Shown piece by piece: positions 2 through 61,264 of a stretch of 64,000 nt of DNA. Origin of the DNA: Intrasporangium sp. Lineage in GTDB: Bacteria > Actinomycetota > Actinomycetes > Actinomycetales > Dermatophilaceae. Position 1 is the first letter of the stretch. Every line of letters begins with the position of its first letter. The translations under genes were made by a program, and so were the position numbers. The notes under the pieces are model-generated. The model worked only from the letters and a program-made list of their open reading frames with translations, was not told the DNA's origin and did no database searches. The DNA is taken from contig NZ_JBQCCV010000125.1 in assembly GCF_051961875.1 (NCBI RefSeq), positions 36,915-100,914 on the forward strand. Direction: 5' to 3'.

Positions 2-1093
2 TGGATCTGGGAGCCCCCAGAGGACTGGGCCCCGCAGCCGCCCAGCGAGAGTGTCGACGGCGTGCCCGTCGCCAGCCGGGTCTGGACCTCACCCGTGACG
101 GAATCACCTTTTGCTGCAACCGAGCTCATTGCCTCGTGGAATGCCACCACACCGCTCTGTGCCTGGCTCGTGGTCGAGGGCCGGGTCCTCGGAGACGAGG
201 CGTGGTCGGCCTGGTTCACCCTCGCGCGGTGGTCGGCCGGCGACCCGGAGGCCGGGTCGCCGGTGCGGCGGACCAGTCTGCTCGGCCAGGACCTGCCCGA
301 GGGGAAGGTCGACACCGACACCTTCATTGCCCGAAACCCCTTCCGCCAGTTCCAGGTTCGCGTCAGCGCTTACACCGGACGCCCTGACGAGTGGCCCGAT
401 GTCAGGCTCGTCGCAGCCCTCGTCAGTGCTCCCGACCCGGTCGGTGAGGACAGCGCCCCGCCGTCGCCCACCGTGACGGAGCTCGGTGTCCCGCCCCTGT
501 CGCAACGACGTCACGCCGGCACCTTCCCGCACTGGGACGGCGGGGGCGGCTCCTGGTGCTCGCCGACCGCGACGACGATGCTGCTCGGGTACTGGGGGCG
601 CACACCGAGCGCCGAGGAGACGGCCTGGGTCGGTCACGACGTCGACCCCGAGGTCGTCCACGCGGTGCGCTCCGTCTTCGACGACGCGTACGGCGGCGCG
701 GGCAACTGGGCATTCAACATCGCGTATGCCGCCGAGCGCGGGCTGCGCGGCTATGTGACCCGCCTCCGCGGGCTGGGGGAGGCGGAGCAGTTCCTCCGGG
801 CCGGGATCCCGCTCGCGGTGTCCGTCCGGTTCACGCCGGAGGACCTACCGGGCGCGGTGTACCGGACGGAGGGCCACCTGCTGACGATCATCGGGTTCAC
901 CCCCGACGGCGACGTCGTCTGCAACGACCCCGGGTCACGCGGGGAAGCGAGCCCCGAGGCGGTGCGCATCGTGTTCCCGCGTGAGGCCTTCGAGCAGGCC
1001 TGGTGGGCCGGCAGCGGCGGCATCGCCTACGTCATCCACCCGCGGGACGTGTCCCTGCCAGCGGCGCCGACCCCGGAGCCGAACTGGGGCTGA
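2..1093 (+). CDS. Peptidase C39-like family protein (5'-partial; frame is open from the window edge)
   Basis: Frame open from nt 2 (WIWEPPEDW...). Catalytic-type motifs WCSPTATTM (Cys), GHLLTIIGF (His) and VCNDP. Confidence 0.8.
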   Translation, partial: WIWEPPEDWAPQPPSESVDGVPVASRVWTSPVTESPFAATELIASWNATTPLCAWLVVEGRVLGDEAWSAWFTLARWSAGDPEAGSPVRRTSLLGQDLPEGKVDTDTFIARNPFRQFQVRVSAYTGRPDEWPDVRLVAALVSAPDPVGEDSAPPSPTVTELGVPPLSQRRHAGTFPHWDGGGGSWCSPTATTMLLGYWGRTPSAEETAWVGHDVDPEVVHAVRSVFDDAYGGAGNWAFNIAYAAERGLRGYVTRLRGLGEAEQFLRAGIPLAVSVRFTPEDLPGAVYRTEGHLLTIIGFTPDGDVVCNDPGSRGEASPEAVRIVFPREAFEQAWWAGSGGIAYVIHPRDVSLPAAPTPEPNWG

Positions 1094-1112
1094 CGTGCCC
1101 GACACTGGTGGC

Positions 1113-1481
1113 ATGACCGCCCACGTCCCTCCCGGCTGGCCCGAGGGCGTCCCCCCGGCCCACACCCCGGGGTGGGAGCACCGGGCCGTCCTCTGGCTGC
1201 TCGACCAGTGCCCGCCCGACTACCGCGCTCACGATGCCTGGCGGCGTCACCCGATCGCCCTGGCGTGGCTGGCGGGCAAGCACCTCGACGGCCAGGTCGA
1301 GGCGATGCGCGTGGCGTGGCGGGAGGCCCGGGTCGCGCTCGGTCCGCACCTGCCGCCCGAGGCGCTGCCCGAGGTGATGTCGCAGATCGAGGCCGAGGGG
1401 ATCCGGCTGCTCGCTGCGTCGCGGTCGGTCCGGCTGCTCCTCGAGGCGCTGGAGGGCAAGGTGTTCGCACCCCGCCTGTGA
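1113..1481 (+). CDS. Conserved actinobacterial hypothetical protein
   Basis: ATG at 1113 (or GTG 1095) directly after the C39 gene stop; protein-like sequence PPGWP...W..RAVLWLLDQCPPDYR.. Confidence 0.65.
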   Translation: MTAHVPPGWPEGVPPAHTPGWEHRAVLWLLDQCPPDYRAHDAWRRHPIALAWLAGKHLDGQVEAMRVAWREARVALGPHLPPEALPEVMSQIEAEGIRLLAASRSVRLLLEALEGKVFAPRL

Positions 1482-1536
1482 CCGGTGGGTCACGCGGCTC
1501 CCGGCTGAGCGGCATACGGTGTGACCCCCGGGGCGG

Positions 1537-4868: not shown

Positions 4869-5599
4869 TCGAGGCAACCGCAGTCGGCTGGCGGGTCGGC
4901 GGGGCGCGGATCCTCGACGACGTCTGCCTGTCCGTCGGGGCCGGTGAGCTGCTCGGCATCATCGGCCCGAACGGGGCGGGCAAGTCCTCCCTCGTCAACA
5001 TCCTCTCCGGAGTGCGCCGCCCGACCACGGGGCGAATCGCGCTGGGGGACAGGGACGTCACGAGGACCAGCGCCACGAAGCGCGCGCGTATGGGGCTGGC
5101 CCGCTCGTTCCAGACGTCGGCGCTCTTCGACGGCCTCACCGCCGGCGAGAACGTCCGCCTCGCCATCCAGGCGTCCGGCGAGCGGCCCTTCTCGCCCTTC
5201 CGCCGCGCCGCGGGTGACGGGGCCGAGCAGATCGACGCGCTCCTGACAAGGGTCCGTATGCCGGGCCGCGCGGGCACCCTCGCGCGTGACCTCTCGCACG
5301 GGGACCGGCGCAAGCTCGAGCTCGCCATGGCCCTCGCGTCCGACCCCTCGGTCCTCCTTCTCGACGAGCCCATGGCCGGTGTCTCGGCCGAGGACGTCGA
5401 CGGCCTGGCCGACATCATCGGCGAGGTCCGCGACAGGGGGGTCGCCGTGGCGATGGTCGAGCACCACATGCACGTCGTCCTGGGCCTCGCCGACCGGGTC
5501 GCGGTCCTGCACCACGGGCAGGTCCTCGCGACAGGGTCGCCCGACGAGGTCACCGCGGATGAGCGCGTCCAGCAGGCCTACCTCGGGGAGGCATTGTGA
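4865..5599 (+). CDS. ABC transporter ATP-binding protein (LivG-like)
   Basis: GTGA overlap with SBP stop; GPNGAGKS, LSHGDRRKLE, LLLDEP, VEHHM. Confidence 0.9.
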   Translation: MIEATAVGWRVGGARILDDVCLSVGAGELLGIIGPNGAGKSSLVNILSGVRRPTTGRIALGDRDVTRTSATKRARMGLARSFQTSALFDGLTAGENVRLAIQASGERPFSPFRRAAGDGAEQIDALLTRVRMPGRAGTLARDLSHGDRRKLELAMALASDPSVLLLDEPMAGVSAEDVDGLADIIGEVRDRGVAVAMVEHHMHVVLGLADRVAVLHHGQVLATGSPDEVTADERVQQAYLGEAL

Positions 5600-8398: not shown

Positions 8399-9336
8399 TG
8401 ACCACCGAACCCGCCTTCGTGATGGAACTGCCCGTCGGGAGTGTCGCGATCCACGACCTCACCGTCGGCACACCGGCCGACGACGCCCCGGTCGTGCTCG
8501 CCGTGCACGGCATCACCGCCAACGGCCTGTCCTGGCGTGAGGTGGCCGACGAGGTCGACCGTCGCCACGGCTCCGCGGTGCGCTTCCTCGCGCCCGACCT
8601 CCGAGGCCGGGCGGCGAGCGCCGCGGCGGCCGGTCCCTATGGGCTGCAGACGCACGTGGCCGACCTCGCCACGATCGCCTCCATCTTCGGGGCCCAGCCC
8701 GTGCTCGTCGGGCACTCGATGGGCGCCTTCATCGCCGGGCTCGCCGTCGCCACCCATCCCGATCGCTTCGCGGGAGCCGTCCTCGTCGACGGCGGCCTCG
8801 CCTTCCCGGCCCCCGAGGGGCTCGACATCGACGCGGCCCTCAAGGCCGTCATCGGCCCGGCTATGGACCGGTTGTCGATGCGGTTTGCCAGCCCCGCGGC
8901 ATACGTCGAGTTCTGGAGCGAGCACCCCGCGCTCGGGCCGGCGCTGCACGGCCCGGCGGGGGACGCCCTGCGCGCCTATCTCGAGCACGACCTCGTGCCC
9001 GCCGACGGGCAGTGGCGCAGCAGCTGCGTCATCGAGGCGGTCCGGGCCGACGGCGCCGACGTCCTCACCGACGCCGAGACCCACGGTGCCGTGGCACGCG
9101 CCGCCGCGGACGGCACCGGCATGGACTTCGTCTGGGCCCACCGCGGACTGCTCGACGAGGCCCAGGGCCTCTACGACAAGGACCGCCTCGCTGCCCTCGG
9201 CGTGCCGGACGAGGTCACCGTGCAGGACGTCGACGCGAACCACTACACGGTCATCCTGGAAGAGCCCGGCGTGACCGCGATCGCGGACGCGATCGACCGC
9301 CGGCTCGCGGCCGTCCCGCCCCTCAGCGAGGCGTGA
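8398..9336 (+). CDS. Alpha/beta fold hydrolase (esterase/lipase-like)
   Basis: TGATG coupling with the permease; HGITA oxyanion motif, DLRGR, nucleophile GHSMG, C-terminal NHYTV. Confidence 0.88.
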   Translation: MTTEPAFVMELPVGSVAIHDLTVGTPADDAPVVLAVHGITANGLSWREVADEVDRRHGSAVRFLAPDLRGRAASAAAAGPYGLQTHVADLATIASIFGAQPVLVGHSMGAFIAGLAVATHPDRFAGAVLVDGGLAFPAPEGLDIDAALKAVIGPAMDRLSMRFASPAAYVEFWSEHPALGPALHGPAGDALRAYLEHDLVPADGQWRSSCVIEAVRADGADVLTDAETHGAVARAAADGTGMDFVWAHRGLLDEAQGLYDKDRLAALGVPDEVTVQDVDANHYTVILEEPGVTAIADAIDRRLAAVPPLSEA

Positions 9337-11218
9337 GGAGCAGGTCCCGCAGGCGGAGGGCGAGCTGGATCTCGAGGGCGCGGTCGGGCCGCTGCCAGGT
9401 GTCCCCGAGCAGCGCCGAGATCCGCTCCAGCCGCTGGGAGACCGTGTTGACGTGCACGTGCAGCTGCCCGGCCGCATGGCGCGGGCTCGCACCCGCCGCG
9501 AAGTATGCCGTGAGCGTGCCGAGCAGGTCCGTCCCCCGGCGCTCGTCGTAGTCCACGATGGGGCCGAGCACCCGCTCGACGTACTCTCCGATGTCCGGCT
9601 CGGAGCTCACGATGAGCCCGGCGAACCCGAGCTCCGTCGCCGCGCCACCCATGCCCCGGCGTCCCAGCGCGAGGAGCGCCCGGACTGTCCGGACGCCCTC
9701 GGCATGCGCCTCCGGGACGGCCGTGACGCCGGTGATCGGCCCCACGCCCGCCACCGTGGTCTCCGAACGACGGCTCAGCAGGGCCGCCATCGACTTCGCC
9801 AGAGCATCGGGGTCCTCACCGGGCACCAGGGCCACGACCGCCCCGTCGTGGGCTCCGACGAGGGCGTCCTCGCCGGCCAGGGTGCTCGTCGAGAGCAGGA
9901 GGCTGCGCGTCGTCGTGCCGACATCCCCGCGGACCACGAGGAGGCAGAAGGGGCGGTGCGGGTCGAAGCCGGCCGACCGCGCCAGAGAGACCCGGTCGTC
10001 GACCGTCCCGCGGGGGCTGACGAGGTCGGAGACAAGGCGGTTGCGCTCCTGCTGACGTGAGTCGGCCGCCGCGCGCTCGAAGAGCAGGACGAGTGCCGTG
10101 ACGACCGCGGCGCGCTCCACGGTGCGACGGTCCGGATCGCTCAGTGACTCGACGCCGCCGACAAGGAGCGTGCCGAGCCGGTCGCGCATTGCGCTCACCG
10201 GAGCGACATAGACGCCGTCGACCTCGAAGAGCCGCCCCGTGCCCCAGGCCTCCTCGGTCGGCACGCCGAGGTCCTCGGGGACCGGCCCGGACTGGCTGCG
10301 CCGTTCGCCGGTCTCGTCGGCGAGCACCGCCCAGCCGCCCAGCAGCTCGGACAGCGACTTCGTGATGCCATCCACGCCGCCTCCCTCGAGGACGAGGGAG
10401 GCGAAGCGGTCGTGGGCCGCCGCAGCCTTCTCGACACCGGCGGCATACTGCCGGACCGTCTCGTGTGCTTGGGACAGGGCCTTCACGGCCTGCTCCGCGT
10501 CCGCCCGGGCGCGGGTCTGCACGAGGGTCACGGCGGCCAGCGTGGCGAGGCTGCCGAGGAGGGCGACCTCCTCGCGGGTGAACGGGCGGGGGGAACGGTT
10601 TGCGGCGAAGAGGACCCCGACGAAGTGCGACTCGACGATGAGCGGGGTGCCGCAGATCGCGATGATGCCCTCGTCGCCCACGCCGGAGTCGATGCTGGCC
10701 GTGTGGGCGAAGCGCTCGTCGTTCGTGTAGTCGGCCGTCCAGTACGGCTTGTGCGTCGAGGCGACGAGACCGCCGAGGCCGTCCCCGAGGGCGAGGCGGA
10801 GCGCCTGGAACCGTGCCGAGATCGAGCCGTCGGTGGCTCGCATGAAGGTGTCGCCGCGCTCCGGATCGTAGAGCGTGAGGTAGGCGAGGTCGGTCCGCAT
10901 GAGGATCCGGGCGCGACGGACGATCGCGTCGAGGACCCCGGCGGGGTCGCTCTCGGTCGCCAGCTCGCGGGCGATGTCGAGCAGGGCCGACAGTGCGGCT
11001 TCACGGTCGAGGTGTGCGTCGCGCTCGTGGGTGATCCGCAGCGCCAGCTCACGGGCCCTCGTCGGGGCGGGAGCTGCGACGACGTCACCGACCGAGGCAC
11101 CGGAGGCGACGAGGTCCAGCAGATGCAGCAGCTGGTCTCGTTCCTCAGCGTCCGGCACGGTGCCGATCCTAGGAGGGCCCGGGGTCACGGGGCGCGTGTG
11201 GTCGGGTCCGTCCGGCAT
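9323..11218 (-). CDS. GAF domain + PucR/CdaR C-terminal HTH transcriptional regulator
   Basis: GAF region (GDGLGGLVA..., VGVLFAANR); C-terminal TLTAYFAAG....AAGQLHVHVNTVSQRLERI. ATG overlaps the bdh stop. Confidence 0.88.
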   Translation of the reverse strand: MPDGPDHTRPVTPGPPRIGTVPDAEERDQLLHLLDLVASGASVGDVVAAPAPTRARELALRITHERDAHLDREAALSALLDIARELATESDPAGVLDAIVRRARILMRTDLAYLTLYDPERGDTFMRATDGSISARFQALRLALGDGLGGLVASTHKPYWTADYTNDERFAHTASIDSGVGDEGIIAICGTPLIVESHFVGVLFAANRSPRPFTREEVALLGSLATLAAVTLVQTRARADAEQAVKALSQAHETVRQYAAGVEKAAAAHDRFASLVLEGGGVDGITKSLSELLGGWAVLADETGERRSQSGPVPEDLGVPTEEAWGTGRLFEVDGVYVAPVSAMRDRLGTLLVGGVESLSDPDRRTVERAAVVTALVLLFERAAADSRQQERNRLVSDLVSPRGTVDDRVSLARSAGFDPHRPFCLLVVRGDVGTTTRSLLLSTSTLAGEDALVGAHDGAVVALVPGEDPDALAKSMAALLSRRSETTVAGVGPITGVTAVPEAHAEGVRTVRALLALGRRGMGGAATELGFAGLIVSSEPDIGEYVERVLGPIVDYDERRGTDLLGTLTAYFAAGASPRHAAGQLHVHVNTVSQRLERISALLGDTWQRPDRALEIQLALRLRDLLLTPR

Positions 11219-13896: not shown

Positions 13897-15153
13897 TCAG
13901 CCGGCGTGCGGGACGGGGTTCTCGTTGCTGGCGAGGGCGATGAGCGGCGCAGTGATCGTAACCTGCCACTCCCGGGCGCCCGCTGTCCGGAGCGCCTGGG
14001 CGACCTCCTCGGTCGTGGGCGCGGGCGGCGCCTCCCAGAGGTACCGGCGCAGCAGCTCAGGCGTCAGGAGGTTCTCGACCGGGACGGCGAGCTCCTCCGA
14101 CACCGCACCGATGAGCTCACGGGACCGCGCGAGCCGCGCCGCCGCGATCGGGTCGCGGTCTGCCCAGGACCGAGGTGGTGGTGGACCGGTGTGCGGCAGG
14201 TTGAGCTGCGGCAGCTCGTCCTCGCGGAGCGCGAAGGCGGCCCGGATGGCGTCGACGATCAGGTCCTCGTTGCGGCGGATCGACCGCGCGAGACGCGGCT
14301 CCTTCGACGCCACGGCGAGGGGCGGTCGGGTGTCGCGTTGGTGCTCGAGCGCGAGCTCCGCGATGGCGGCGTCCGGCAGGATCCGCCCGGGGGACACGTC
14401 GCGGCGCTGCGCCAGGGCGTCGCGGTCCTGCCACAGCTCTCGGACGATCGCGAGGCCGCGCCGGGTGCGCACCTTGTGCACTCCAGAAGTGCGCCGCCAC
14501 GGGTCCACTCGGGGCTCCGGACCCGTGAAGGAGAGCAGGTGGGAGAACTCCTGCCGAGCCCAGCCAAGCTTGCCCTGCCGCTCGAGGTCCTCCGCTACGG
14601 CGTCGCGAAGGTCACCGAGCACCTCGACGTCGAGGGCGGCATACCGCAACCACGGCTCGGGCAGTGGCCGTGAGCTCCAGTCGACCGCGCTGTGCTCCTT
14701 GGCGAGGCGGAAGCCGAGGTAGTGCTCCACCATGGCGCCGAGCCCGACGCGGGGCAGGCCCGCGAGGCGCCCGCCGAGCTCGGTATCGAAGAGCAGCCGG
14801 GGCCGCAGCCCGACCTCGGCGAGGCACACGAGGTCCTGGGTCGCGGCATGGAGGATCCACTCGCCGTCCCCGATCGCGGCATCGACGACGGTGAGGTCGG
14901 GGCAGGCGACGGGGTCGATGAGCCAGGTCCCCGACCCCTTGCGGCGCAGCTGCACGAGGTAGGCGTGCTGGCCGTAGCGGTAGCCGGAGGCCCGTTCGGC
15001 GTCGAGCCCGATGGGGCCGCGCCCGCAGCGCACCGCGTCGGCAGCCTCGGAAAGCCCGGACGGGTCGGAGACGATGTCGGGGACCCCCTCGACGGGAGCG
15101 GCGCGCAGCTCGAGCTGCTCCGAGACGCCCGTCGGCTGGTCGGCGCCACTCAC
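13897..15153 (-). CDS. rnd: Ribonuclease D (3'-5' exonuclease + HRDC domain)
   Basis: DAERASGYRYG, WILHAATQDL, FDTEL, WLRYAALDVE and HRDC region. GTG overlaps the DUF3000 stop. Confidence 0.9.
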   Translation of the reverse strand: MSGADQPTGVSEQLELRAAPVEGVPDIVSDPSGLSEAADAVRCGRGPIGLDAERASGYRYGQHAYLVQLRRKGSGTWLIDPVACPDLTVVDAAIGDGEWILHAATQDLVCLAEVGLRPRLLFDTELGGRLAGLPRVGLGAMVEHYLGFRLAKEHSAVDWSSRPLPEPWLRYAALDVEVLGDLRDAVAEDLERQGKLGWARQEFSHLLSFTGPEPRVDPWRRTSGVHKVRTRRGLAIVRELWQDRDALAQRRDVSPGRILPDAAIAELALEHQRDTRPPLAVASKEPRLARSIRRNEDLIVDAIRAAFALREDELPQLNLPHTGPPPPRSWADRDPIAAARLARSRELIGAVSEELAVPVENLLTPELLRRYLWEAPPAPTTEEVAQALRTAGAREWQVTITAPLIALASNENPVPHAG

Positions 15154-15734
15154 CGGCGCGGGCCCGGCAACGGGACGACGCCGTCGGGCAGTGGGGGGAT
15201 GCCGGCGATCGTGCAGAGCATGTCGCCCCATGCGCGCAGGTGGTCGGTGAGCGCCTCGTCCGTGGGGGTCCACGAGGCGCGGATCTCCATCTCGACGCTG
15301 GCGCCCCGGTCCGCGAGACCGCCGAAACCCTCGCTCACCACGCGGGTCACCGTGCCGGCCTCGGCGGTCCAGTGCAGGCCGCGTCCTTGGAGACCGTCGA
15401 CGAGCCAGGACCAGCCGACGGCACCGAGCATCGGGTCGGAGGCGAGCTCGGGCTCGAGCTCCGCACGGGCGAACGTGACGATCCGCCAGGCCCCGTCCCA
15501 GGCGTCCGGAAAGGACGGGTCGTGGAGCAGGACGAAGCGCCCGGTCGCGAGCTCGCCCTCGGGGTCGGTCGGGTCGAGCACGTCGCCGGTCAGCGCCGCC
15601 GCATGCGGGGCGATCCGGCTGGGCGCCGGAACCTCGGTGAGCCGCACCTCGGGACGCAGCCGCACATCGCGGAGGGCGGCCAGCACCCTCGCGAAATCCG
15701 CGCCGTGCGCGCCCGGCAGCGTCCTCGTGTGCAC
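15150..15734 (-). CDS. DUF3000 family protein
   Basis: LRPEV...[37 protein letters not shown]; usual position between rnd and hemE. Confidence 0.85.
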
Positions 15735-15740: not shown

Positions 15741-15746
15741 AGGGTA
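15741..15746 (-). promoter_or_regulatory. -10 element (TACCCT) of a probable leaderless DUF3000 transcript
   Basis: TANNNT hexamer 6 nt upstream of the GTG at 15734; no SD sequence. Confidence 0.5.
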
Positions 15747-15826
15747 TGCCGCGCACCTCGGTTCTGTCCGGAGGCCACGCCGAGCGGGTGGCTCGGTGCG
15801 CTCCCCGCGCGTGGCAGGATGAGGCG

Positions 15827-16876: not shown

Positions 16877-18549
16877 TGGCCGGCGGGTCCCTCGCCCGAT
16901 CGAGCCTCGTCATGGTCGGCGGCTCCTTCGCGTCACGCGCCCTGGGCGTCGTGCGCGGGGCGCTGATGACGGCGATCATCGGCACCCTCGCCGCCGGTGA
17001 CGCCTTTGGGCTCGCCAACACCCTGCCCAACGTCCTCTACCTACTCGCCGCGGGCGGCATCCTCAACGCCGTCCTCGTCCCGGCGCTGTCGCGGGCCATG
17101 AAGCTCGAGGACGGTGGCCAGGAGTTCACGGACCGGGTCATCACGGTGGCCCTCACCGGGATGGCCGTCCTGACCGGCGTCATCATGCTCGGTGCCGGCT
17201 TCTTCGTCTGGCTCCTGAGCGGGGACCGGGGCCCGCAGTTCAGCAGCCTGGCGCTGGCCTTCACCCTGATGTGCCTGCCGCAGGTCTTCTTCTACGGCGT
17301 GTATGCCCTGCTCGGGCAGATCCTCAACGCCCGTGAGCGGTTCGGGGCCTTCGCCTGGGCGCCGTTCGTGGCGAACGTCGTCGCGATCGCGGGGCTCGTC
17401 GTCTTCATGGTCATCTACCCGGACCCGCACCAGGTCGACGGCGGTGGGCGGCGCCTGCCGCGGCCGCCCGAGGCGTGGACCGGCGGGATGATCTGGCTCT
17501 TCGCCGGCACGGCCACGCTGTCGGTGGTCGCCCAGGCGCTCTGGCTCGTCCCGGCGCTGCGCCGCGCCGGGTTCACATACCGGCCGCGGTGGGGCCTGCG
17601 CGGCGTCGGGCTGGGCGGGGTGAGCCGGCTCGCCCTCTGGGCCTTCGGCGGCCTGGCGGTGTCGCAGCTCGGCTTCTTCATCAACACCGCGGTCCTCAAC
17701 CACGCCGCGGGATTCGGCACGGCGAGCCACCCGATCCGCGGGCCACTGCTCTACCAGGTGGCCTTCACGATCTTCATGCTGCCGCACGCCTTCATCGCGG
17801 TCTCGATCATCACGGCGCTCTTCCCCCGCCTCTCCCGTGACGCGGCCGATGGAGACACGCCCGCCCTGCTCCGCGACTTCCGCCGGGGCCTGACGCTGCC
17901 GCTCGTTGCGAACCTGCCGGTCATGGTCTTCATGATCATCTGCGCGCGGCCGCTCGTCGCGCTGCTCAACCCCGGCATCGACACGGTGTCGATCGAGCTC
18001 GGCGGCTATGCCCTGACGGTCATGGTCCTCGGCATCATCCCGTTCGGCATCGACCTGCTCTGCTACCGGACCTTCTTCGCCCTCGACGACGGCCGGGCCC
18101 CTCTCCTCATGCAGGTCGTCCTGACCGGCGCGACTGCCGTCGCCGGCGTGCTGACCTACCTCGCGCCACCCCAGTGGGCGCTGGGCATCGTGGCCGCGGG
18201 CATGACCGTGGGCAACGTGCTCAGCTCGGGGACCGGCCTGGTGCTGCTCAGGCGCCGCCTCGGCCCGCTCGGCCTGACGCAGGTCCTGGTGTCGACAGCC
18301 CGGATCGGTGTCGCGGCCGTCGCCGCCGCCCTCCTCGGCGGTGGGGCCTTCGCCGTTGTCTCGCCCATCGTCGGCGACCTCGCCGAGATGAGCACGTGGC
18401 AGCGGGTCTTCGGCAACGGCCTCGTGCTGGCGCTGGCCGGACTCGTGTTCGTCGTGGTCTACCTCGGCGCCGCGGCGGTCCTGCAGGTCCCCGAGGTCCG
18501 TGAGGTGGCCGCACTCGCCCGCCGCAAGACCGTCCGCACCCGGCAATAG
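16876..18549 (+). CDS. murJ: Lipid II flippase MurJ/MviN family protein
   Basis: TGATG coupling with hemE; SRALG..R, AFGLANTLPN, GGILNAVLVP; many TM segments. Confidence 0.85.
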   Translation: MAGGSLARSSLVMVGGSFASRALGVVRGALMTAIIGTLAAGDAFGLANTLPNVLYLLAAGGILNAVLVPALSRAMKLEDGGQEFTDRVITVALTGMAVLTGVIMLGAGFFVWLLSGDRGPQFSSLALAFTLMCLPQVFFYGVYALLGQILNARERFGAFAWAPFVANVVAIAGLVVFMVIYPDPHQVDGGGRRLPRPPEAWTGGMIWLFAGTATLSVVAQALWLVPALRRAGFTYRPRWGLRGVGLGGVSRLALWAFGGLAVSQLGFFINTAVLNHAAGFGTASHPIRGPLLYQVAFTIFMLPHAFIAVSIITALFPRLSRDAADGDTPALLRDFRRGLTLPLVANLPVMVFMIICARPLVALLNPGIDTVSIELGGYALTVMVLGIIPFGIDLLCYRTFFALDDGRAPLLMQVVLTGATAVAGVLTYLAPPQWALGIVAAGMTVGNVLSSGTGLVLLRRRLGPLGLTQVLVSTARIGVAAVAAALLGGGAFAVVSPIVGDLAEMSTWQRVFGNGLVLALAGLVFVVVYLGAAAVLQVPEVREVAALARRKTVRTRQ

Positions 18550-19690: not shown

Positions 19691-21076
19691 ATGAGTCTGC
19701 GTGTTGGGGTCGTCGGTGGTGGGATCAGCGGGCTCGCGGCGGCTTGGGAGCTGGTCCAGGCCGACCCCGGCACGTCGGTCACCGTCTTCGAGGGATCCCC
19801 GCAGCTCGGGGGTCGGCTCCGACGGGCCCCTGTGGCGGGGGCGCTCGTCGACGTCGGCGCAGAGTCGGTCCTCTTTCGACGTCCCGAGGCCGTCCAGCTC
19901 ATCAAGGAGCTCGGTCTGGGCGACCGGCTCACCCACCCCGCACCCGTCGGTGCCTCCATCGTGTCCGGCGGCGCGCGTTGGCCGATGCCGAAGGGGACCC
20001 TCATGGGCATCCCCGCCGACCCCGACTCCGTCTCCGGGCTGCTCAGCCCCGCGGAGGTGGAGCGGGCCCGCCACGAGGTCATCACCGGCCCCACCGGCGG
20101 GGATGTGGCGATCGGCCGACTCGTCGAGGAGCGGCTCGGTCCCGCGGTCACGGACAAGCTCGTCGAGCCACTCCTGGCGGGCGTGTACGCCGGTCACTCC
20201 CGCGCCATCTCCGCCGAGTCGGCCGTCCCCAGCCTGTATGCCGCTGGGCTGGCCGGGACGTCCCTCCTCGAGGCCGCGCGTGAGGCGGTCGCGCCGTCGC
20301 AGGGCGCCACGGCCGACCCGCGTCCGGTGTTCGCCACGCTCCAGGGCGGGCTCGGCTCGCTGCCGGGCCTGCTCGCCGAGGCGCTGGTCGCCAAGGGCGT
20401 CGAGATCCACCTGGGGACGATGGTCCGCCGGCTGAGCGGCGGTCCGGGCGCCTGGACCCTCACGACCGGGCCGACGATCGACGAGGTGAGCTGGACCTTC
20501 GACCGGGTCCTCGTCGCCACTCCCGGCGCACCGGCCGCCCGGCTACTCCGGACCGTCGCGCCCGACGCGGCGGCCCCGCTCTCGAGGATCGACTACGCCT
20601 CGATGGCGATCGTCACCTTCGCCTTCCCCGGACCGGTCGACGAGCCGTTCGCCGGCAGCAGCGGGTTCCTCGTGCCACCGACCGAGCCGCTCTCGATCAA
20701 GGCCTCGACGTTCAGCTCGGTCAAGTGGCCGTGGCTCGCCGAGACACGGCCGGACCTCACCTTCGTCCGGGCCTCGCTCGGTCGGCACGGGGAGGAGGCG
20801 ACGCTGCAGCGACCCGACGCCGAGCTGGCGCGCCTGGCGCTCGCCGACCTCGGCCACGTCCTCGGCGTCGCCCTGCCCGCCCCCGTCGACGTGCACGTCC
20901 AGCGCTGGGGCGGCGGCCTGCCGCAGTACGGCGTCGGGCACCGCGGGCTCGTCGGCGAGGTACGAGCGGGCCTGCCACCCACGCTGGAAGCAAGCGGGGC
21001 GGCATACGACGGGGTCGGGATCCCTGCGTGCATCGGGTCCGGGCGAGCGGCAGCCCGCCGGCTGCTCACCGGATGA
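19691..21076 (+). CDS. hemY: Protoporphyrinogen/coproporphyrinogen oxidase (HemY)
   Basis: [43 protein letters not shown]. Confidence 0.93.
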
Positions 21077-41559: not shown

Positions 41560-41590
41560 GCGGCATACCCCCCGATCAGGGGTATGCCGC
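41560..41590. terminator. Bidirectional hairpin between convergent genes, made of two inverted GCGGCATAC motifs
   Basis: GCGGCATACCCC-CCGATCA-GGGGTATGCCGC, 12-bp perfect stem. Confidence 0.75.
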
Positions 41591-44307: not shown

Positions 44308-45422
44308 CGGGTATGCCGCTCACCCACCTCCCGGAGACCCGCGGCCTCCCGCACCATGGCCCCCACGAGGTGGTCGACCATGCCCGGTTCCGGGACCGCT
44401 CGGCGCGGGACGTGCTCGAGGTCCGCCGGGGAGCGGACGCGCTCGAGTCCATGGGCCGCGAGGGTTTCTGGGCGGTTGTCGCGACCTTCGAAGGGCAGCT
44501 TTCTGCCGTGCGGTTCGCGACGGTCGAGCCCAGCGGGCCGAATGACGGCGCACCCAGCGGCGTCGGCAACCGGTCGCCGCAGTGGACTGCGCTGAGAGGG
44601 CGGTGGCGGACGAGCCTGGGGCGAGCGGCATACCGCGAGGCGGTGCGGGAGGTCCGTGAACGGATCGCGGCGGGCACGGTCTACCAGGTCAACATCTGCC
44701 GGGTCCTGTCTCACGAGATCGCCCGCGACGCAGACCTCGACGGACTCGATCTGCTCGTGCGCCGGGGCAACCCGTCACCCTACGGATCGCGGATTCGCTG
44801 CGCCGAGGCCGGGCTCGATGTCGTCAGCGCCTCGCCGGAGCTGTTCCTCTCGCGACGCGGCGAGCGCGTCGAGACGAGACCGATCAAAGGGACAGCGCCG
44901 AGCGCCGCCGAGATGCTCGACAAGGACCACGCCGAGAACGTGATGATCGTCGACCTCATGCGCAACGACCTCTCCCATGTCTGCCGGCCCGGCAGCGTGA
45001 CGGTCGATGCCCTCTGCGCGCTCGAACCGCACCCGGGCCTGGTCCACCTCGTCTCGACGGTAAGCGGGAGGCTGCGGCCCGACGCTACGTGGCCGGACGT
45101 CATGGCGGCGGCCTTCCCGCCCGGCTCGGTCTCCGGCGCGCCGAAGTCCAGCGCACTCCGGACCATCCACGAGCTCGAGACGGCACCGCGCGGACCGTAC
45201 TGCGGCGCCATCGGGTGGGTCGACGCCGACCGGGGCGAGGCGGAACTGGCGGTCGGCATCCGGACGTTCTGGGCAGAGGACGACCGCGATGGTCGACGCT
45301 GGCTCCGCTTCGGCACCGGCGCCGGCATCACCTGGCACTCCGAGCCCGAGCGGGAGTGGCGCGAGACGGAGCTGAAGGCGGCTCGACTCATCGGCCTCGC
45401 GTCCGGCAGGGTAGGCGAGTGA
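44304..45422 (+). CDS. Chorismate-binding enzyme (PabB/TrpE component I-like)
   Basis: YQVNIC, SASPELFL, PIKGT, ENVMIVDL.RNDL, FPPGSVSGAPK, IRT, GAGIT..S. Confidence 0.88.
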   Translation: MTGMPLTHLPETRGLPHHGPHEVVDHARFRDRSARDVLEVRRGADALESMGREGFWAVVATFEGQLSAVRFATVEPSGPNDGAPSGVGNRSPQWTALRGRWRTSLGRAAYREAVREVRERIAAGTVYQVNICRVLSHEIARDADLDGLDLLVRRGNPSPYGSRIRCAEAGLDVVSASPELFLSRRGERVETRPIKGTAPSAAEMLDKDHAENVMIVDLMRNDLSHVCRPGSVTVDALCALEPHPGLVHLVSTVSGRLRPDATWPDVMAAAFPPGSVSGAPKSSALRTIHELETAPRGPYCGAIGWVDADRGEAELAVGIRTFWAEDDRDGRRWLRFGTGAGITWHSEPEREWRETELKAARLIGLASGRVGE

Positions 45423-45447: not shown

Positions 45448-46296
45448 ATGACCGGCGAGGAGATCCGCGTCTGGGTGAACGGCAGCCTCGTCGATGCCGA
45501 GGCACCAGCACTGCCGGCGCTCGACCACGGGATCACCGTCGGCGACGGCGTCTTCGAGACGGCGAAGATCGACGGCGGGGCGCCGTTCGCGCTCCGGAGG
45601 CATCACGCCCGGCTGCTGCGATCGGCGGCCGGCCTCGGCCTGCCGCCGATCGACCTCGACCTGCTGGACGAGGGCATCAAGGCGGTCCTGGCCGGCGGCG
45701 ACATCGAGTTCGGGCGGCTGCGCTACAGCGTCACCGGCGGGACGGGACCGCTCGGGTCGGACCGGGATTCGGCCATGCCCACCTACATCGTCCTCGCCGG
45801 CCCCCAGCCGCGTCCGCCCCAGTCGGGGGCCCTCGTCGTCGTGCCGTGGACACGCAACGAGCGGTCCGCCGTCGCCGGCCTGAAGACGACGTCGTACGCC
45901 GAGAACGTCGTCGCGCTCGCCTACGCCAAGGAGCGTGGCGGCATCGAGGCGGTCTTCGGCAACACACGCGGCGAGCTCTGTGAGTGCACCGGCAGCAACA
46001 TCTTCGTCGTGCGCGACGGCCAGGTCTCCACGCCTCCAGTCGAGTCCGGGCTGCTACCCGGCATCACCCGAGAGCTCACCATCGAGTGGGCGGAGGAGAG
46101 CGGCATACCGGTGCGCGAGAGCGCCCTCCCGCTCGGTGTGCTCGGCGAGGCGGACGAGGTCTTCATCACGAGCTCCACCAAGGACATCCTCCCCGTGCAC
46201 GCGGTCGACGGCCGTGCGCTGCCCACGGAGCGGCCGGTCACCACCCGCTTGCAGGAGGTGTTTCGCAGCGGGACCCAGCGGACCGTCGACCCGTGA
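45448..46296 (+). CDS. Aminotransferase class IV (PabC/4-amino-4-deoxychorismate lyase-like)
   Basis: DHG...GDGVFET, LKTTSY.ENV, GLLPGITR, EVFITSS. Confidence 0.88.
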   Translation: MTGEEIRVWVNGSLVDAEAPALPALDHGITVGDGVFETAKIDGGAPFALRRHHARLLRSAAGLGLPPIDLDLLDEGIKAVLAGGDIEFGRLRYSVTGGTGPLGSDRDSAMPTYIVLAGPQPRPPQSGALVVVPWTRNERSAVAGLKTTSYAENVVALAYAKERGGIEAVFGNTRGELCECTGSNIFVVRDGQVSTPPVESGLLPGITRELTIEWAEESGIPVRESALPLGVLGEADEVFITSSTKDILPVHAVDGRALPTERPVTTRLQEVFRSGTQRTVDP

Positions 46297-55809: not shown

Positions 55810-55975
55810 GCAGGACCTCCACAAACCGACAACAGAGCGACCCGCACGAGCGGGTCACCCAGCAGGGTACGTCCTCGCCGGAACGGTTTCACGGGCCGCC
55901 ACGCCCAGTGGATACGCTTGGGCGGTGCCGCCGTGGGCGGCATACCCCATCCTCATCACGCAAGGAGCCACACCC

Positions 55976-58040: not shown

Positions 58041-58183
58041 ACCGAACCGCTTCGGCGGATCGGATTCCTCAATCGCTGTAGCGAATGAGGAACAGAAGGC
58101 CCGGGAACTCATACTTCCCGGGCCTTCACCTTCCGTCTTGCACCGGCCCTGCGGCTCTCACACCCGCAGGGCCGTCTGCTTTC
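58041..58183 (+). ncRNA. Putative structured small RNA with four consecutive hairpins
   Basis: Stems at 58042-58063 (UUCG loop), 58065-58092, 58095-58127 (13 bp perfect) and 58145-58173 (10 bp perfect). Candidate promoter TTGCGC-N17-TTCAAT at 58005-58033. Confidence 0.55.
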
Positions 58184-58297
58184 TCCGCCGCCCTGCCGCA
58201 GCGCCGGTGCACAGGGCCGGGCCAGATCGCGCAGGAGCGGGCAGGATCGGGTAACGGGAACCTGATCGGGTACGGGCCGGCGACCAGGAGGTGCCGC

Positions 58298-59008: not shown

Positions 59009-59081
59009 ACACGCCCTACCCGGCGATCTCCGAATCGACACGCTGCCCGGCAAGGGAGGAGCACCCCATAGGATCGCGGGC

Positions 59082-59660
59082 ATGACCGACCAGAACGGGG
59101 AGACGCCGTCCTCGGTGCGCATCGAGGACGTGGACGACCTCGTCCACGTGGACGACGGCTTCGAGCGACTCTGGACGCCCCATCGGATGGCGTACATCGC
59201 GGGGGAGAAGCCCACGGATGAGGCCGGCCACGGCTGCCCGTTCTGCACGGCCTCGGGCAAGGACGACGCCGAGGGGCTCATCGTCCACCGCGGTGAGCAC
59301 TGCTACGTGGTGATGAACCTCTTCCCCTACAACCCCGGACACGTCCTCGTCTGCCCGTACCGCCACGTGTCGCTCTACGTCGACCTGACCGACCAGGAGA
59401 CGGCGGAGTTCACCCTCCTGACGAAGCAGGCCATCCGGGCCCTGCAGTCGGCCTCCGAGCCGCACGGGTTCAACATCGGCATGAACCAGGGCGCGGTGGC
59501 CGGGGCCGGCGTCGCGGCACACCTGCACCAGCACGTCGTCCCGCGTTGGGCGGGCGACATGAACTTCCTGCCGATCGTCGGGCAGACCAAGGCGCTGCCC
59601 GTGCTCCTCGAGGACACGCGCGAGCAGATCGTCTCCAACTGGCCCGGCGCCGGTCAGTAG
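59082..59660 (+). CDS. HIT family protein (Ap4A phosphorylase, Rv2613c-like)
   Basis: RLWTPHRM.YI, CPFC, NLFPYNPGH, AHLHQHVVPRW. Confidence 0.92.
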   Translation: MTDQNGETPSSVRIEDVDDLVHVDDGFERLWTPHRMAYIAGEKPTDEAGHGCPFCTASGKDDAEGLIVHRGEHCYVVMNLFPYNPGHVLVCPYRHVSLYVDLTDQETAEFTLLTKQAIRALQSASEPHGFNIGMNQGAVAGAGVAAHLHQHVVPRWAGDMNFLPIVGQTKALPVLLEDTREQIVSNWPGAGQ

Positions 59661-59672
59661 GCTGACGACACC

Positions 59673-60296
59673 ATGCTCAACCGTCTGCTGCGGGCAACGT
59701 TCACCAAGTTGCTCAGCCCGATCGCGCACGTGCTCCTGAGGCTCGGCGTCAGCCCTGACGTCGTCACGATCGTCGGCACCCTGGGCGTCTGCGCCGGCGC
59801 TCTCGTCTTCTTCCCCCGCGGGCAGCTCTGGATCGGCGTGCTCGTCATCACCGCTTTCGTCTTCTCCGACACCGTCGATGGCATCATGGCCCGGGCGTCC
59901 GGGCGGTCGAGCAAGTGGGGCGCCTACCTCGACTCCACGCTGGACCGGGTCGGCGACGCGGCCGTCTTCGGCGGCCTCGTCCTCTACTTCACCCGCGACG
60001 GGGACAGCTCGCTCATGGCCGGCCTCGCCCTCGCCTGCCTCATCCTCGGCAGCGTCGTCTCCTACGCCAAGGCACGGGCCGAAGGACTCGACTTCACCGC
60101 CAACGTCGGCATCGCGGAGCGGGCCGACCGCCTCGTCGCTGTCCTGGTCGCGGCCTTCTTCGCCGACGTCTTCGACGTCCCGGTCCTGCTCGGTGCCGTC
60201 CTCGGCCTGCTCGCCGTCGCCAGCCTTGTCACGGTCGTCCAGCGGATGCTGACGGTGCGCCGTCAGGCGCTGGCCGCGGGGGAGGTCTCGCGGTGA
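59673..60296 (+). CDS. pgsA: Phosphatidylinositol phosphate synthase
   Basis: CDP-alcohol phosphotransferase motif D..DG.MAR......WGA.LDSTLDR; PIM operon position. Confidence 0.92.
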   Translation: MLNRLLRATFTKLLSPIAHVLLRLGVSPDVVTIVGTLGVCAGALVFFPRGQLWIGVLVITAFVFSDTVDGIMARASGRSSKWGAYLDSTLDRVGDAAVFGGLVLYFTRDGDSSLMAGLALACLILGSVVSYAKARAEGLDFTANVGIAERADRLVAVLVAAFFADVFDVPVLLGAVLGLLAVASLVTVVQRMLTVRRQALAAGEVSR

Positions 60297-61264
60297 GACG
60301 TGCCCCCCTCGGCGGTCGGCTCACGGGTGCTGCGAGCGTGCTCGGGTTCCGCCTCGGCTGGTCGGCCGTGCGCGCGATGCCCGAGCGAGCGGCATACGGG
60401 CTGTTCGCGCGGATCGCCGACGTGGCCGTCTGGCGGGGTGGGAAGGGCATCGAGCGGCTCCGGAGCAACTACGCCAGGGTGCGCCCAGAGCTGACGCCCG
60501 CCGAGCTCGACGAGCTCGTCCACGACGGCATGCGCTCGTACATGCGCTACTACTGCGAGGCCTTCCGGCTGCCGTCCCTGCGTCCGGAGCAGATCGACCG
60601 TGCGGCGAGGGTCACCGGCTTCGAGGAGATGCGCGATACGTGTCGGGCCGGCGGCACGGCGATCGTCTTTGTCGGGCACCTCGGCAACTTCGACATGGCG
60701 GCGGCCTGGTCGGCCCGCAACCTTGCCCCGGTGACCACCGTCGCGGAGCGCCTCAAGCCGGAGGAGGTCTTCCAGGACTTCGTCGCCTTCCGCAACAGCA
60801 TCCAGATGGACATCATCCCCCTCGAGGGCGGGGACAACCCGTTCCACGAGCTGCTCCGGGCGGCCAAGAAGGGCGGCCGGCTCATCGCCCTCGCGAGCGA
60901 CCGCGACCTGACCGCCAACGGCGTGGAGGTCGACTTGCTCGGGCACCGGGCACGGATGGCGAAGGGCCCTGCCCTCCTCTCGCTGATGACCGGTTCCCCC
61001 CTGTATGCCGCGCGCGTCCACTACGAGAAGGCTCCGCACGGCGAGGGGTTGGGTGGCTACCGCACGCTCGTCGAGGTGAGCCCGCGCCTCACCCCGCGCG
61101 TCAGCGGCGGCACCGCCGAGCTCGCCCAGGACCTCGTGCAGCAGTGTGCGGACCACCTCGCGGAGACCATCCGCTCGCACACGAGCAGCTGGCACATGCT
61201 GCAGCGGGTGTTCGTCGACGACCTCGACCCCGTCCGCGCGCCGGCACGAGGGGCTGTCACGTGA
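60293..61264 (+). CDS. patA: Phosphatidylinositol mannoside acyltransferase
   Basis: GTGA overlap; SYMRYYCEAFRLP, HLGNFD, VAERLKP, WHMLQ. Confidence 0.88.
   Translation: MRRAPLGGRLTGAASVLGFRLGWSAVRAMPERAAYGLFARIADVAVWRGGKGIERLRSNYARVRPELTPAELDELVHDGMRSYMRYYCEAFRLPSLRPEQIDRAARVTGFEEMRDTCRAGGTAIVFVGHLGNFDMAAAWSARNLAPVTTVAERLKPEEVFQDFVAFRNSIQMDIIPLEGGDNPFHELLRAAKKGGRLIALASDRDLTANGVEVDLLGHRARMAKGPALLSLMTGSPLYAARVHYEKAPHGEGLGGYRTLVEVSPRLTPRVSGGTAELAQDLVQQCADHLAETIRSHTSSWHMLQRVFVDDLDPVRAPARGAVT

Follow-up and report, generated by a model that had tools for sequence, protein, structure and literature searches.

A hyper-abundant octamer with strand-specific spacing in Intrasporangium and its family, a possible self-DNA tag

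The closest described systems are the DUS of Neisseriaceae (GCCGTCTGAA, with a 12-mer, ATGCCGTCTGAA, and eight dialects), which is read by the minor pilin ComP, and the USS of Pasteurellaceae (core AAGTGCGGT, Hin and Apl types). In H. influenzae 65% of USS and in Neisseria 35% of DUS lie in ORFs, and about 10% form part of inverted repeats; both words are in excess in non-coding DNA, show no orientation bias, and their uptake is reported to be orientation-independent (PMC1939737). Other dispersed words are HIP1 of cyanobacteria (GCGATCGC) and Chi (GCTGGTGG in E. coli), the latter read as single-stranded DNA by RecC or AddB. In this work we compare with them a word of Intrasporangium sp., which in our literature search we did not find described in the phylum Actinomycetota.

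The octamer in the window and in the genome

The stretch analysed (the window) comprises 64,000 nt of Intrasporangium sp. GCF_051961875.1 (contig NZ_JBQCCV010000125.1, positions 36,915-100,914, forward strand), and the genome is a 4.0-Mb MAG of this soil actinobacterium. A preliminary description had counted 18 exact copies of a 9-mer (GCGGCATAC/GTATGCCGC) in the window, and we recovered every one in place, 11 on the + and 7 on the - strand. Its estimate of fewer than one expected copy agrees with our value of 0.25 (18 copies were reached in 0 of 100 shuffles), as does its near-even split of 21 copies of the 7-mer core GTATGCC (11 + and 10 -, versus 2.0 expected). Regarding the three sites described as 7-mer only, those at 5256 and 9503 are still complete octamers although they lack the ninth base, so the true unit is not the 9-mer but an asymmetric 8-mer, CGGCATAC, to which Intrasporangium adds a genus-specific 5' extension (5'-G-S-Y-S-A-G-CGGCATAC-3'). 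The third site, 17301, is missing from the 8-mer table, and therefore its eighth base is probably not G. The copies in the window are as follows.

724..731, - strand: octamer copy (GTATGCCG on the + strand) in CDS 170-1093, GCG-TAT-GCC-GCC (AYAA)
1510..1517, + strand: GCTGAG-CGGCATAC, the local dialect in full; intergenic, 20 nt ahead of the ATG of dxs
5256..5263, - strand: 8-mer only, in CDS 4865-5599, CGT-ATG-CCG; of 27 aligned relatives in other genera, 21 have it intact
8897..8904, + strand: octamer copy in CDS 8398-9336, GCG-GCA-TAC
9503..9510, - strand: 8-mer only, in CDS 9323-11158(-), ACG-GCA-TAC
10441..10448, + strand: octamer copy in CDS 9323-11158(-), antisense, CAG-TAT-GCC
14637..14644, + strand: octamer copy in CDS 13897-15153(-), antisense, CGG-TAT-GCC
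15744..15751, - strand: octamer copy, divergent intergenic, 10 nt before gene 15150-15734(-) begins
17301..17308, - strand: core only, the 7-mer GTATGCC at 17301-17307, from the 7-mer count
20236..20243, - strand: octamer copy in CDS 19691-21076, antisense, CTG-TAT-GCC-GCT
21000..21007, + strand: octamer copy in CDS 19691-21076, GCG-GCA-TAC
27876..27883, + strand: octamer copy in CDS 26650-28290(-), antisense, ACG-TAT-GCC-GCT
28593..28600, - strand: octamer copy, intergenic by the gene calls of this analysis
41560..41590, no single strand: inverted octamer pair, hairpin, between convergent ADH-like (40513-41544, +) and methyltransferase (41615-42460, -) genes
44311..44318, - strand: GGTGAG-CGGCATAC in the orientation of the word, 5' end of CDS 44304-45422
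44626..44633, + strand: octamer copy in CDS 44304-45422, GCG-GCA-TAC; previous copy 315 bp off, in opposite orientation
46101..46108, + strand: octamer copy in CDS 45448-46296, AGC-GGC-ATA-CCG (very rare ATA codon)
55938..55945, + strand: octamer copy at the 5' end of thrS (55925-57820), GCG-GCA-TAC
60390..60397, + strand: octamer copy in CDS 60338-61264, GCG-GCA-TAC
61003..61010, - strand: octamer copy in CDS 60338-61264, antisense, CTG-TAT-GCC-GCG; previous copy 613 bp off, in opposite orientation

Against a Markov null the excess extends over the whole genome, with 1,565 octamers (116 expected), 1,211 9-mers (35 expected) and 701 copies of the extended local 10-mer AGCGGCATAC (5.2 expected), and it is found in relatives as well, whose genomes carry the word in thousands of copies. 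The word ranks first at each k from 6 to 12, the information in the flanks fades out about 14 nt from the core, and copies per 20 kb are close to Poisson, that is, evenly dispersed. The longest stretch devoid of the word spans 24.7 kb and corresponds to an apparently imported block of metal resistance and IS110.

One-mismatch variants of CGGCATAC occur at about background in the genome counts, indicating a sharp specificity, with the exception of CAGCATAC (GTATGCTG), the CpG-cytosine deamination product of the octamer, which is depleted (12 versus 58 expected). This depletion would fit a by-product of methylation and biased mismatch repair (VSP-like), or a restriction-modification or other modification target, and the link of HIP1 to methyltransferases points the same way. 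We nevertheless consider such an origin, suggested in the preliminary description, quite improbable. Vsr is absent here and from 46 of 66 word-rich genomes, and the methyltransferases of the N4/N6 class, which our screen covered, are patchy, missing from many word-rich genomes and represented here only by a matching 52-aa fragment. Moreover, single-position repair cannot create an exact 8-14-mer, and genomes normally avoid the targets of restriction-modification systems and do not amplify them.

Coding sequences, gene ends and hairpins

In total, 62% of octamer copies lie within CDS, in either orientation and in several frames. The CDS contain 971 octamers where about 120 would be expected from a synonymous-codon shuffle; under the codon-preserving null the 9-mer (693 versus about 56 in CDS) and the 10-mer (354 versus about 9) deviate even further. 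As had been proposed, copies are read through codons that are rare in this genome (TAT-GCC, GCA-TAC, GGC-ATA). Where the context is G|Tyr-Ala|G, TAT-GCC occurs 476 times and TAC-GCC 148 times, TAT being 12% of Tyr codons overall, and 112 of the 358 ATA codons fall within the word. The word overrides codon preference. Outside genes its density is 1.1-1.7 per kb in all intergenic types versus 0.27 per kb in coding DNA, a 4-6-fold excess.

Pairs of copies at most 60 bp apart are mostly inverted (110 inverted versus 11 direct in the whole genome). Inverted pairs take in 14% of copies, generally as hairpins at gene ends, 10-50 bp past stop codons, and they are rare in divergent spacers. The hairpin noticed earlier at 41560-41590 is real: GCGGCATACCCC-CCGATCA-GGGGTATGCCGC has a 12-bp stem and a 7-nt loop, lies 16 nt past one stop codon and 25 nt ahead of that of the convergent gene, and with its surroundings (71 nt) folds at -41.5 kcal/mol (z = -4.1). 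It is likely to be a bidirectional terminator, and inverted pairs may have been co-opted as terminator hairpins.

The resemblance of these pairs to terminators could suggest a terminator or promoter motif or a REP/MITE element, and the copies at 1509 (TACGGT) and 15744 (TACCCT) do supply TANNNT -10 boxes 10-20 nt ahead of start codons. However, a -10 role fits 2 of the 21 window copies, most copies are intragenic, and the flank information stops too close to the core for a mobile element, which refutes these options; chance through codon usage is refuted by the codon-preserving null, which is off by 8- to 40-fold. Since GTATGCCG also occurs within the Illumina P7 adapter, contamination was considered too, and it was rejected because the flanks are unlike the adapter and complete genomes of relatives carry the word at equal density. 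We find this whole group of explanations scarcely credible.

Strand arrangement and candidate readers

Copies in the same orientation avoid each other, their pair density being 0.15 times the expectation at 60-200 bp, 0.27 at 200-500 bp, 0.50 at 0.5-1 kb, 0.8 at 1-2 kb and 1.05 beyond. Pairs in opposite orientation stay at about 1.0 past 60 bp and are thus independent. Same-orientation copies therefore exclude one another within about 1-2 kb and neighbours alternate strands, a pattern that recurs in two other genomes. This exclusion is the most distinctive property of the word and was absent from the preliminary description. To our knowledge, strand alternation has not been described in DUS or USS, whose uptake is reported to be orientation-independent, so the CGGCATAC system differs from both.

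We found no replichore polarity: octamer counts do not track GC skew (99/96 and 86/78), and 20 samples around the chromosome of a complete relative gave 175 + versus 160 - copies. This rules out a KOPS role and, together with the absence of RecC, upholds the earlier rejection of KOPS and classical Chi. A guide for an FtsK/SpoIIIE/TraB-type dsDNA translocase (KOPS, SRS, TRS/clt 8-mers), acting in segregation or cell-to-cell DNA transfer, would agree with a word of 8 bp that is asymmetric like KOPS and TRS, and with the orientation-dependent loading of these translocases. It appears very improbable to us, as gaps between +- and -+ neighbours show no difference in length and every genome of the family, whether word-rich or word-free, has exactly one FtsK gamma domain; for segregation the lack of polarity largely refutes it.

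Our tentative preference, by analogy with DUS and USS, is that CGGCATAC could be a recombination-linked self-DNA tag that is read one strand at a time. The traits behind the uptake-like reading proposed previously (hyper-abundance, strand balance, intergenic excess, inverted pairs and lineage dialects) hold, and it is from them that we infer uptake itself. A sequence-specific reader would keep the word in DNA at the nucleotide level. Fragments bearing it would have an advantage in uptake or processing and would then be recombined in natural transformation, so that word-creating mutations would spread by molecular drive, balanced by mutation and by codon and protein constraints. The strand alternation does not follow from a reader that simply binds duplex DNA at the cell surface. 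The reader would rather recognise one strand, or single-stranded DNA, in the uptake or recombination of linear DNA; the two strands would then be independent channels, with diminishing returns for extra nearby copies on the same strand.

The support for a tag comes entirely from distribution, and much the same pattern would be expected of a Chi-like or other strand-read function. The main rival is a Chi-like single-stranded signal for a non-RecBCD helicase-nuclease (AdnAB or other); on recognising it, the enzyme would stop degrading DNA and begin to load RecA. As a linear fragment or two-ended break needs one oriented copy per side, alternation would be favoured and nearby same-strand copies would be redundant, in agreement with the strand-specific exclusion and the independence of opposite strands. 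The length equals that of E. coli Chi, the word is missing from the apparently imported block, and lineage-specific retargeting fits a co-evolving recognition pocket. Against this, RecC is absent here and from 53 of 66 word-rich genomes, the replication co-orientation usual for Chi is lacking, and neither the intergenic excess nor the hairpin pairs are Chi traits. Furthermore, known Chi sites are far less enriched, and the word overrides codon preference, whereas Chi of E. coli consists of favoured codons. We know of no Chi for AdnAB, and we hold this explanation to be rather unlikely.

We are more doubtful about a binding site for an abundant chromosomal protein (nucleoid, cohesion, replication), or a HIP1-like word, kept by per-copy selection with no drive. 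The near-Poisson dispersal, the sharp specificity and the cross-genus conservation (34% of copies intact versus 18% of background 8-mers) would suit it, and cyanobacterial HIP1 illustrates that such words can exist without an uptake role. However, selection acting on each of thousands of copies could hardly outweigh codon selection in the absence of a drive; duplex binding does not predict exclusion on the same strand only; nucleoid-protein sites are usually degenerate; and no family-specific candidate protein emerged.

To the best of our knowledge, no genus bearing the word is naturally competent, and Gram-positive transformation is otherwise not sequence-specific. The search for a cognate methyltransferase or a ComEA-type receptor did reveal ComEA, within an intact comEA-comEC operon and accompanied by Tad-type ATPases, and it yielded no N4/N6 methyltransferase that tracks the word and no candidate receptor for it. 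ComEA, ComEC and Tad-type ATPases are universal in the family. As word-free relatives have ComEC, the Tad ATPases and FtsK-gamma to the same extent, nothing ties this machinery to the word. M. luteus, also an actinobacterium, transforms by means of Flp pili plus ComEA/ComEC (PMC4322843).

Family range and comparison with known systems

The hyper-abundance concerns 66 of 121 sampled genomes and 40 of 73 genera of a single family (GTDB Dermatophilaceae/Intrasporangiaceae), and the word is at background elsewhere in the order (23 families) and elsewhere in the phylum (about 64 families). In four genera poor or intermediate in CGGCATAC a second dialect, CGGCATCC, reaches 2,600-4,200 copies and replaces it, in one of them only partly, and one genome carries both. 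On the tree of the ComEC domain the state changes at least five times with good support, so any reader must be easy to lose or retarget. By analogy, a family-wide, lineage-specific word with dialects would be the signature of self-DNA tags such as those of Neisseria and Haemophilus.

The words of KOPS, SRS and TRS (FtsK, SpoIIIE and TraB gamma domains) are likewise dispersed, asymmetric and of 8 bp, but KOPS and SRS have a strong polarity towards dif, whereas CGGCATAC is unpolarised, and word-rich genomes have no extra gamma-domain protein. Chi is also a short asymmetric word, read on a single strand in a single direction, that marks self DNA, and rescue of linear fragments needs both orientations; in contrast, CGGCATAC occurs in a genome without RecC, shows no replication co-orientation, is enriched 10-100 times more strongly and against codon preference, and is concentrated between genes, where it forms hairpins. 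HIP1 is comparable as a lineage-restricted octamer, at about 1 per kb, found in genes against codon expectation. It is palindromic and linked to methyltransferases, unlike CGGCATAC, which is asymmetric (and in this sense not HIP-like), strand-specific, and not tracked by Vsr or the screened N4/N6 methyltransferases.

The USS resembles our word in having a 9-mer core with weaker flanks at about 1 copy per 1-3 kb, in its share within ORFs (65% versus 62%) and in inverted repeats (about 10% versus 14%; PMC1939737), in its accommodation at the codon and proteome level (PMC2817400, PMC1939737), and in an accumulation explained by a molecular-drive model. It differs in its orientation-independent uptake (PMC1939737) and its AT-rich flanking helical segments, the flank of CGGCATAC being G-S-Y-S-A-G on one side only. 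As for the DUS, the hosts of CGGCATAC belong to another phylum and have another envelope (monoderm actinobacteria), in which one would not expect a type IV pilin ComP; their word has an 8-mer core, its same-strand copies keep apart so that neighbours alternate, and its dialects are labile within the family, two of them coexisting in one genome. In both systems, a longer form exists in some lineages (10-mer and 12-mer in DUS, 8-mer versus 10-14-mer here). Moreover, both comprise thousands of exact copies on both strands, intra- and intergenic, with a non-coding excess, inverted pairs at gene ends and no chromosome polarity, in a single family whose dialects follow lineages and differ by one or a few letters (PMC3630211, PMC1939737).

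Abundance and maintenance of the word

All 18 copies of the 9-mer GCGGCATAC/GTATGCCGC reported in a preliminary description of the window were found where it had placed them, when only 0.25 copies are expected and none of 100 shuffles comes near that number. The heptamer core is present 21 times (2.0 expected), 11 on the + strand and 10 on the - strand. The three sites described as carrying only a 7-mer do exist, but at least two of them (5256 and 9503) are full octamers, CGGCATAC, the word that we call the tag. The hairpin at 41560-41590 was also recovered, with a perfect 12-bp stem and a 7-nt loop, flanked by the stop codons of a convergent gene pair (local fold z = -4.1). As for the suggestion of a -10 box, the copies at 1509 and 15744 give TACGGT and TACCCT just before start codons, but a promoter -10 element fits only 2 of the 21 window copies and most copies lie in coding sequence. 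At 44304-44318 the tag overlaps the first codons of the gene following ligD-PrimPol (43345-44307), which may reflect a miscalled start or a tag lying across the 4-nt gene overlap.

The window spans positions 36915-100914 of contig C125. The assembly (4.01 Mb, 317 contigs, 70.9% GC) encodes a Dxs that shares 92% identity with the Dxs of Intrasporangium MAGs and of I. chromatireducens, and its sequence occurs only in soil and rhizosphere metagenome contigs, which identifies it as an Intrasporangium MAG. Its poly-G/poly-C runs of at least 10 nt all (42 of 42) fall within 200 bp of a contig end; they are most likely poly-G artefacts of two-colour Illumina sequencing that persisted in the assembly. 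Under an order-3 Markov model, this genome contains 1,565 copies of the octamer (116 expected), which is the best-defined core, and 1,211 of the 9-mer (625/586 by strand; 35 expected), while the local extended form, the 10-mer AGCGGCATAC, is found 701 times against 5.2 expected, a 135-fold excess. In fact, tag words are the most over-represented at each k from 6 to 12. The logo of the copies reads 5'-G-S-Y-S-A-G-CGGCATAC-3' and is flat past ~14 nt, the 5' extension being limited to part of Intrasporangium. One-mismatch variants are near background (3,432 vs 2,746), which points to a sharp specificity. The BlpI-like palindrome GCTSAGC was considered as an independent second motif and rejected, since it is just 1.3-fold enriched away from the core and is thus part of the degenerate extension. 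Chance or composition was ruled out by dinucleotide shuffles, by the order-3 Markov model and by a synonymous-codon shuffle. Furthermore, GTATGCCG also occurs within the Illumina P7 adapter, but the flanks of the tag differ from the adapter and the word is just as frequent in relatives with complete genomes, so adapter contamination is excluded. We found no description of the tag word in the literature, where the octamer itself is unusable as a query because it is shared with that adapter.

Gene prediction by a simple codon-model caller gave 3,586 genes, with 88% of the sequence coding. By these calls, 971 copies (62%; 417 sense, 554 antisense) are in coding sequence, in several frames, and 571 are intergenic. 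When synonymous codons were shuffled within each gene, ~120 coding 8-mers, ~56 9-mers and ~9 10-mers were predicted, compared with 971, 693 and 354 seen. Within G|Tyr-Ala|G, TAT-GCC outnumbers TAC-GCC by 476 to 148 even though TAT is rare, at 12% of all tyrosine codons, and 112 of the 358 ATA codons of the genome are inside GGC-ATA-C. The most codon-biased genes have the fewest copies. At orthologous sites in relatives the usual replacement of the word is the preferred synonymous codon, and tag copies are intact in other genera in 34% of cases vs 18% for background 8-mers, indicating that the sites are both maintained and turned over. The tag acts at the DNA level, not at the protein level. 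The dipeptides Tyr-Ala and Ala-Tyr reach 1.33 times their expected frequency in the sampled relative with the highest tag density (1.4 copies/kb), compared with ~1.0 in the Intrasporangium genome and ~0.9 in tag-free relatives (those lacking an excess of the tag). The tyrosine content of the encoded proteins is 1.90-1.95% for three tag-rich genomes vs 1.50-1.54% for two tag-free relatives, a difference that could be a proteome-wide footprint of a TAT/TAC-containing word or mere phylogeny.

Placement and strand-specific spacing

In the Intrasporangium genome, each of the four types of intergenic spacer has a tag density of 1.1-1.7 copies/kb, compared with 0.27/kb in coding sequence, a 4- to 6-fold difference; with such similar densities among spacers the tag is neither promoter- nor terminator-specific. 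Among pairs within 60 bp, 110 are inverted and 11 direct. The inverted pairs, both head-to-head and tail-to-tail, have stems of 12-20 bp, mostly lie 10-50 bp past stop codons and are rare in divergent spacers, and they look like tag units recruited as terminators, as described for the Neisseria (DUS) and Pasteurellaceae (USS) uptake sequences. REP, BIME or MITE elements do not fit copies that are 62% coding, mostly single and without hairpin, and whose conservation fades ~14 nt from the core; an origin as REP, promoter or artefact is largely excluded. A larger intergenic tandem repeat can carry the tag too, since each unit of two 74-bp arrays (5 and 2 units) on the Humibacillus xanthopallidus chromosome (278979-280718) contains ACGGCATACGCGCGGGG.

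Two local observations were made in the Intrasporangium genome outside the window. On contig C89, a tag (36266-36273) precedes the start codon of comEA by 37 bp, and inverted pairs at 29494/29512 and 37355/37395 flank neighbouring genes, which is probably incidental given the density of the tag. The longest tag-free stretch of the genome (24.7 kb; contig C249, 19248-43938) has genes for CopZ-like chaperones, a CopA-type P-type ATPase of 1,093 aa whose C-terminal extension is long, a MacB-like ABC exporter, an IS110-family transposase, a peptide ABC transporter, a prolyl oligopeptidase and an amidase. It resembles a metal-resistance block of recent acquisition, in keeping with an import of this DNA, and is one soft example.

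Genome-wide, the strands are balanced (802/763), and tag counts do not track GC skew or gene-strand bias (99/96, 86/78). Similarly, 20 evenly spaced 20-kb windows along the complete 3.9-Mb chromosome of a relative are balanced throughout (175/160). A KOPS/TraB-like or replication-linked signal is largely excluded by this lack of polarity on both genomes, together with a number of FtsK gamma domains that is independent of tag state. Neighbouring copies alternate between strands at short range. In the window, all nine gaps shorter than 1.2 kb link opposite copies, whereas no two neighbours of the same orientation are less than 1,475 bp apart, and the same tendency is seen genome-wide.

Nearest neighbours in opposite orientation in the Intrasporangium genome, by distance
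Less than 60 bp apart: 92%
60-200 bp apart: 90%
200-500 bp apart: 82%
0.5-1 kb apart: 70%
1-2 kb apart: 63%
More than 2 kb apart: ~50%

An all-pairs correlation showed that the density of same-orientation pairs is 0.15, 0.27, 0.50 and ~0.8 times expectation across the bins from 60 bp to 2 kb and that opposite-orientation copies are at expectation beyond hairpin range; the alternation is therefore a repulsion between same-orientation copies. A directional asymmetry in coverage was discarded, as +- and -+ neighbour gaps are alike in length (p = 0.2). The repulsion was seen again in two other genomes, the denser of which has a shorter excluded zone, gone by 1 kb. The simplest reading is that the two strands would be independent channels, in which an extra same-strand copy close by adds little, and this exclusion suggests that the tag is read on one strand or as single-stranded DNA. 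Such a quantitative fingerprint narrows the search for the protein. Moreover, it lends some weight to a Chi-like signal for a nuclease other than RecBCD, since strand-specific exclusion has not been described for DUS or USS and USS uptake is orientation-independent, although we consider this explanation unlikely. In its RecBCD form, Chi is opposed by the absence of RecC from this genome and by the lack of co-orientation with replication.

Distribution, dialects and candidate readers

At a threshold of 0.2 copies/kb, the tag is enriched in 66 of the 121 genomes and 40 of the 73 genera sampled from the GTDB family of the window (Dermatophilaceae/Intrasporangiaceae), reaching 5,422 copies in 3.6 Mb, the remainder being at background. 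Outside this family, 23 families of the order and ~64 more of the phylum are likewise at background, so that enrichment is confined to it. A one-letter variant, CGGCATCC, first seen at a locus of Humibacillus sp. DSM 29435, numbers 2,600-4,200 copies in four genera where CGGCATAC is scarce. Of two genomes of one genus (G120 and G065, genus g63), one has both words (1,410 CGGCATAC and 2,611 CGGCATCC) and the other almost only CGGCATCC (294 and 4,174), as though a dialect switch were under way. In a tag-free relative of 2.6 Mb (G011), the top word of 180 kb (stretches L133-L141) is CCGCATCG/CGATGCGG, with 153 copies vs 30 expected (z = 22), a moderate 5-fold enrichment that could reflect a codon-pair effect or else a further tag, weaker or in decay.

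On a ComEC-domain tree of 81 genomes, tag state is clustered (18-19 changes vs ~26 for shuffled labels) and also labile, with at least five changes forced by well-supported branches. The well-supported clade of 11 that includes the window's genome contains eight CGGCATAC genomes, two CGGCATCC genomes and one with neither word.

Candidate readers and machinery in the 121 genomes sampled from the family
ComEC (PF03772): 118 of 121 genomes
Tad-type ATPases (PF00437): 121 of 121
FtsK gamma (PF09397): one per genome, whatever the tag state
RecC (PF04257): 36 of 121; absent from the Intrasporangium genome and from 53 of the 66 tag-rich genomes
Vsr (PF03852): 34 of 121; absent from the Intrasporangium genome
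N4/N6 methyltransferases (PF01555): 42 of 121, patchy; the methyltransferase classes screened

The Intrasporangium genome encodes Tad-type ATPases and an intact comEA (SLBB+HHH_3)-comEC (Competence+Lactamase_B) operon. Because ComEC, Tad ATPases and FtsK gamma are universal, tag-free relatives included, their link to the tag is neither supported nor refuted. No candidate for a specific receptor, such as ComP in Neisseria, emerged among the families profiled. An origin in methylation or VSP repair is largely excluded by the absence of Vsr from this genome and the patchiness of N4/N6 methyltransferases. The Intrasporangium assembly has two FtsK gamma matches (C35:7430-7600 and C32:670-843) as opposed to one in all other genomes of the family; the second match, in an open frame of 364 aa close to where a contig begins, may derive from a split gene, from a duplicated contig or from the 1.4% contamination.

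Interpretation and comparison with known systems

Among the possible origins we rank first, tentatively, an accumulation of the tag by transformation-linked molecular drive, as its close match to the published statistics of DUS and USS would suggest. That the word serves some unknown cellular binding function seems rather improbable, even more so than a Chi-like signal. With a little less confidence than in molecular drive, we propose that this may be the first self-DNA tag of Gram-positive bacteria (Actinomycetota). The octamer would be read one strand at a time or as single-stranded DNA, with strands tagged independently and at saturating spacing, by a reader whose specificity would have switched at one position, from A to C, at least twice in the family, giving rise to recombination dialects. 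Depending on the reader, it could be either a new class of uptake specificity, exerted during strand separation or downstream of it (e.g., at ComEC, DprA or RecA loading), or the missing Chi equivalent of the AdnAB world.

The bearers of the tag are soil and wastewater actinobacteria (Intrasporangium, Terrabacter, Humibacillus, Knoellia, Phycicoccus and related genera), and, if the tag controls uptake or recombination, a barcode channels gene flow in these abundant bacteria. In that case, adding the tag to donor DNA would be a practical route to genetic tools, and the dialect switches, including the genome with both words, would be a natural experiment on the origin of recombination barriers. 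Same-strand exclusion also makes the origin of such words, by drive or by selection, directly testable.

Sequence-specific self-DNA tags are known in two proteobacterial families only, in addition to the unexplained HIP1 word of cyanobacteria. The HIP-like label of the preliminary description is not borne out, as the tag differs from HIP1 in being asymmetric and not palindromic, with Vsr absent and N4/N6 methyltransferases patchy. From KOPS/SRS, the FtsK/SpoIIIE guides, it differs in lacking a switch of polarity at the origin and dif, in genomes with one FtsK gamma each, and from Chi (RecBCD/AddAB) in its lack of preferential co-orientation with replication and in a genome without RecC (the search for a Chi reader covered RecC). 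On the other hand, its resemblance to an uptake sequence was supported at the level of the sequence signature, and strand-specific exclusion is the property that may set it apart from DUS and USS. In USS and DUS, 65% and 35% of copies are in ORFs and ~10% in inverted repeats, with a non-coding excess and no orientation bias (PMC1939737), and DUS dialects are family-wide (PMC3630211). Natural transformation through Flp pili and ComEA/ComEC occurs in an actinobacterium, Micrococcus luteus (PMC4322843). The statistics of the tag match those published for DUS and USS almost number for number. It shares with them over-representation beyond composition and codons, strand balance, genic and intergenic copies with a non-coding excess, a minority of inverted pairs at gene ends, restriction to one family with lineage dialects, and encoded uptake machinery, the last being no discriminating trait since tag-free relatives have it equally.
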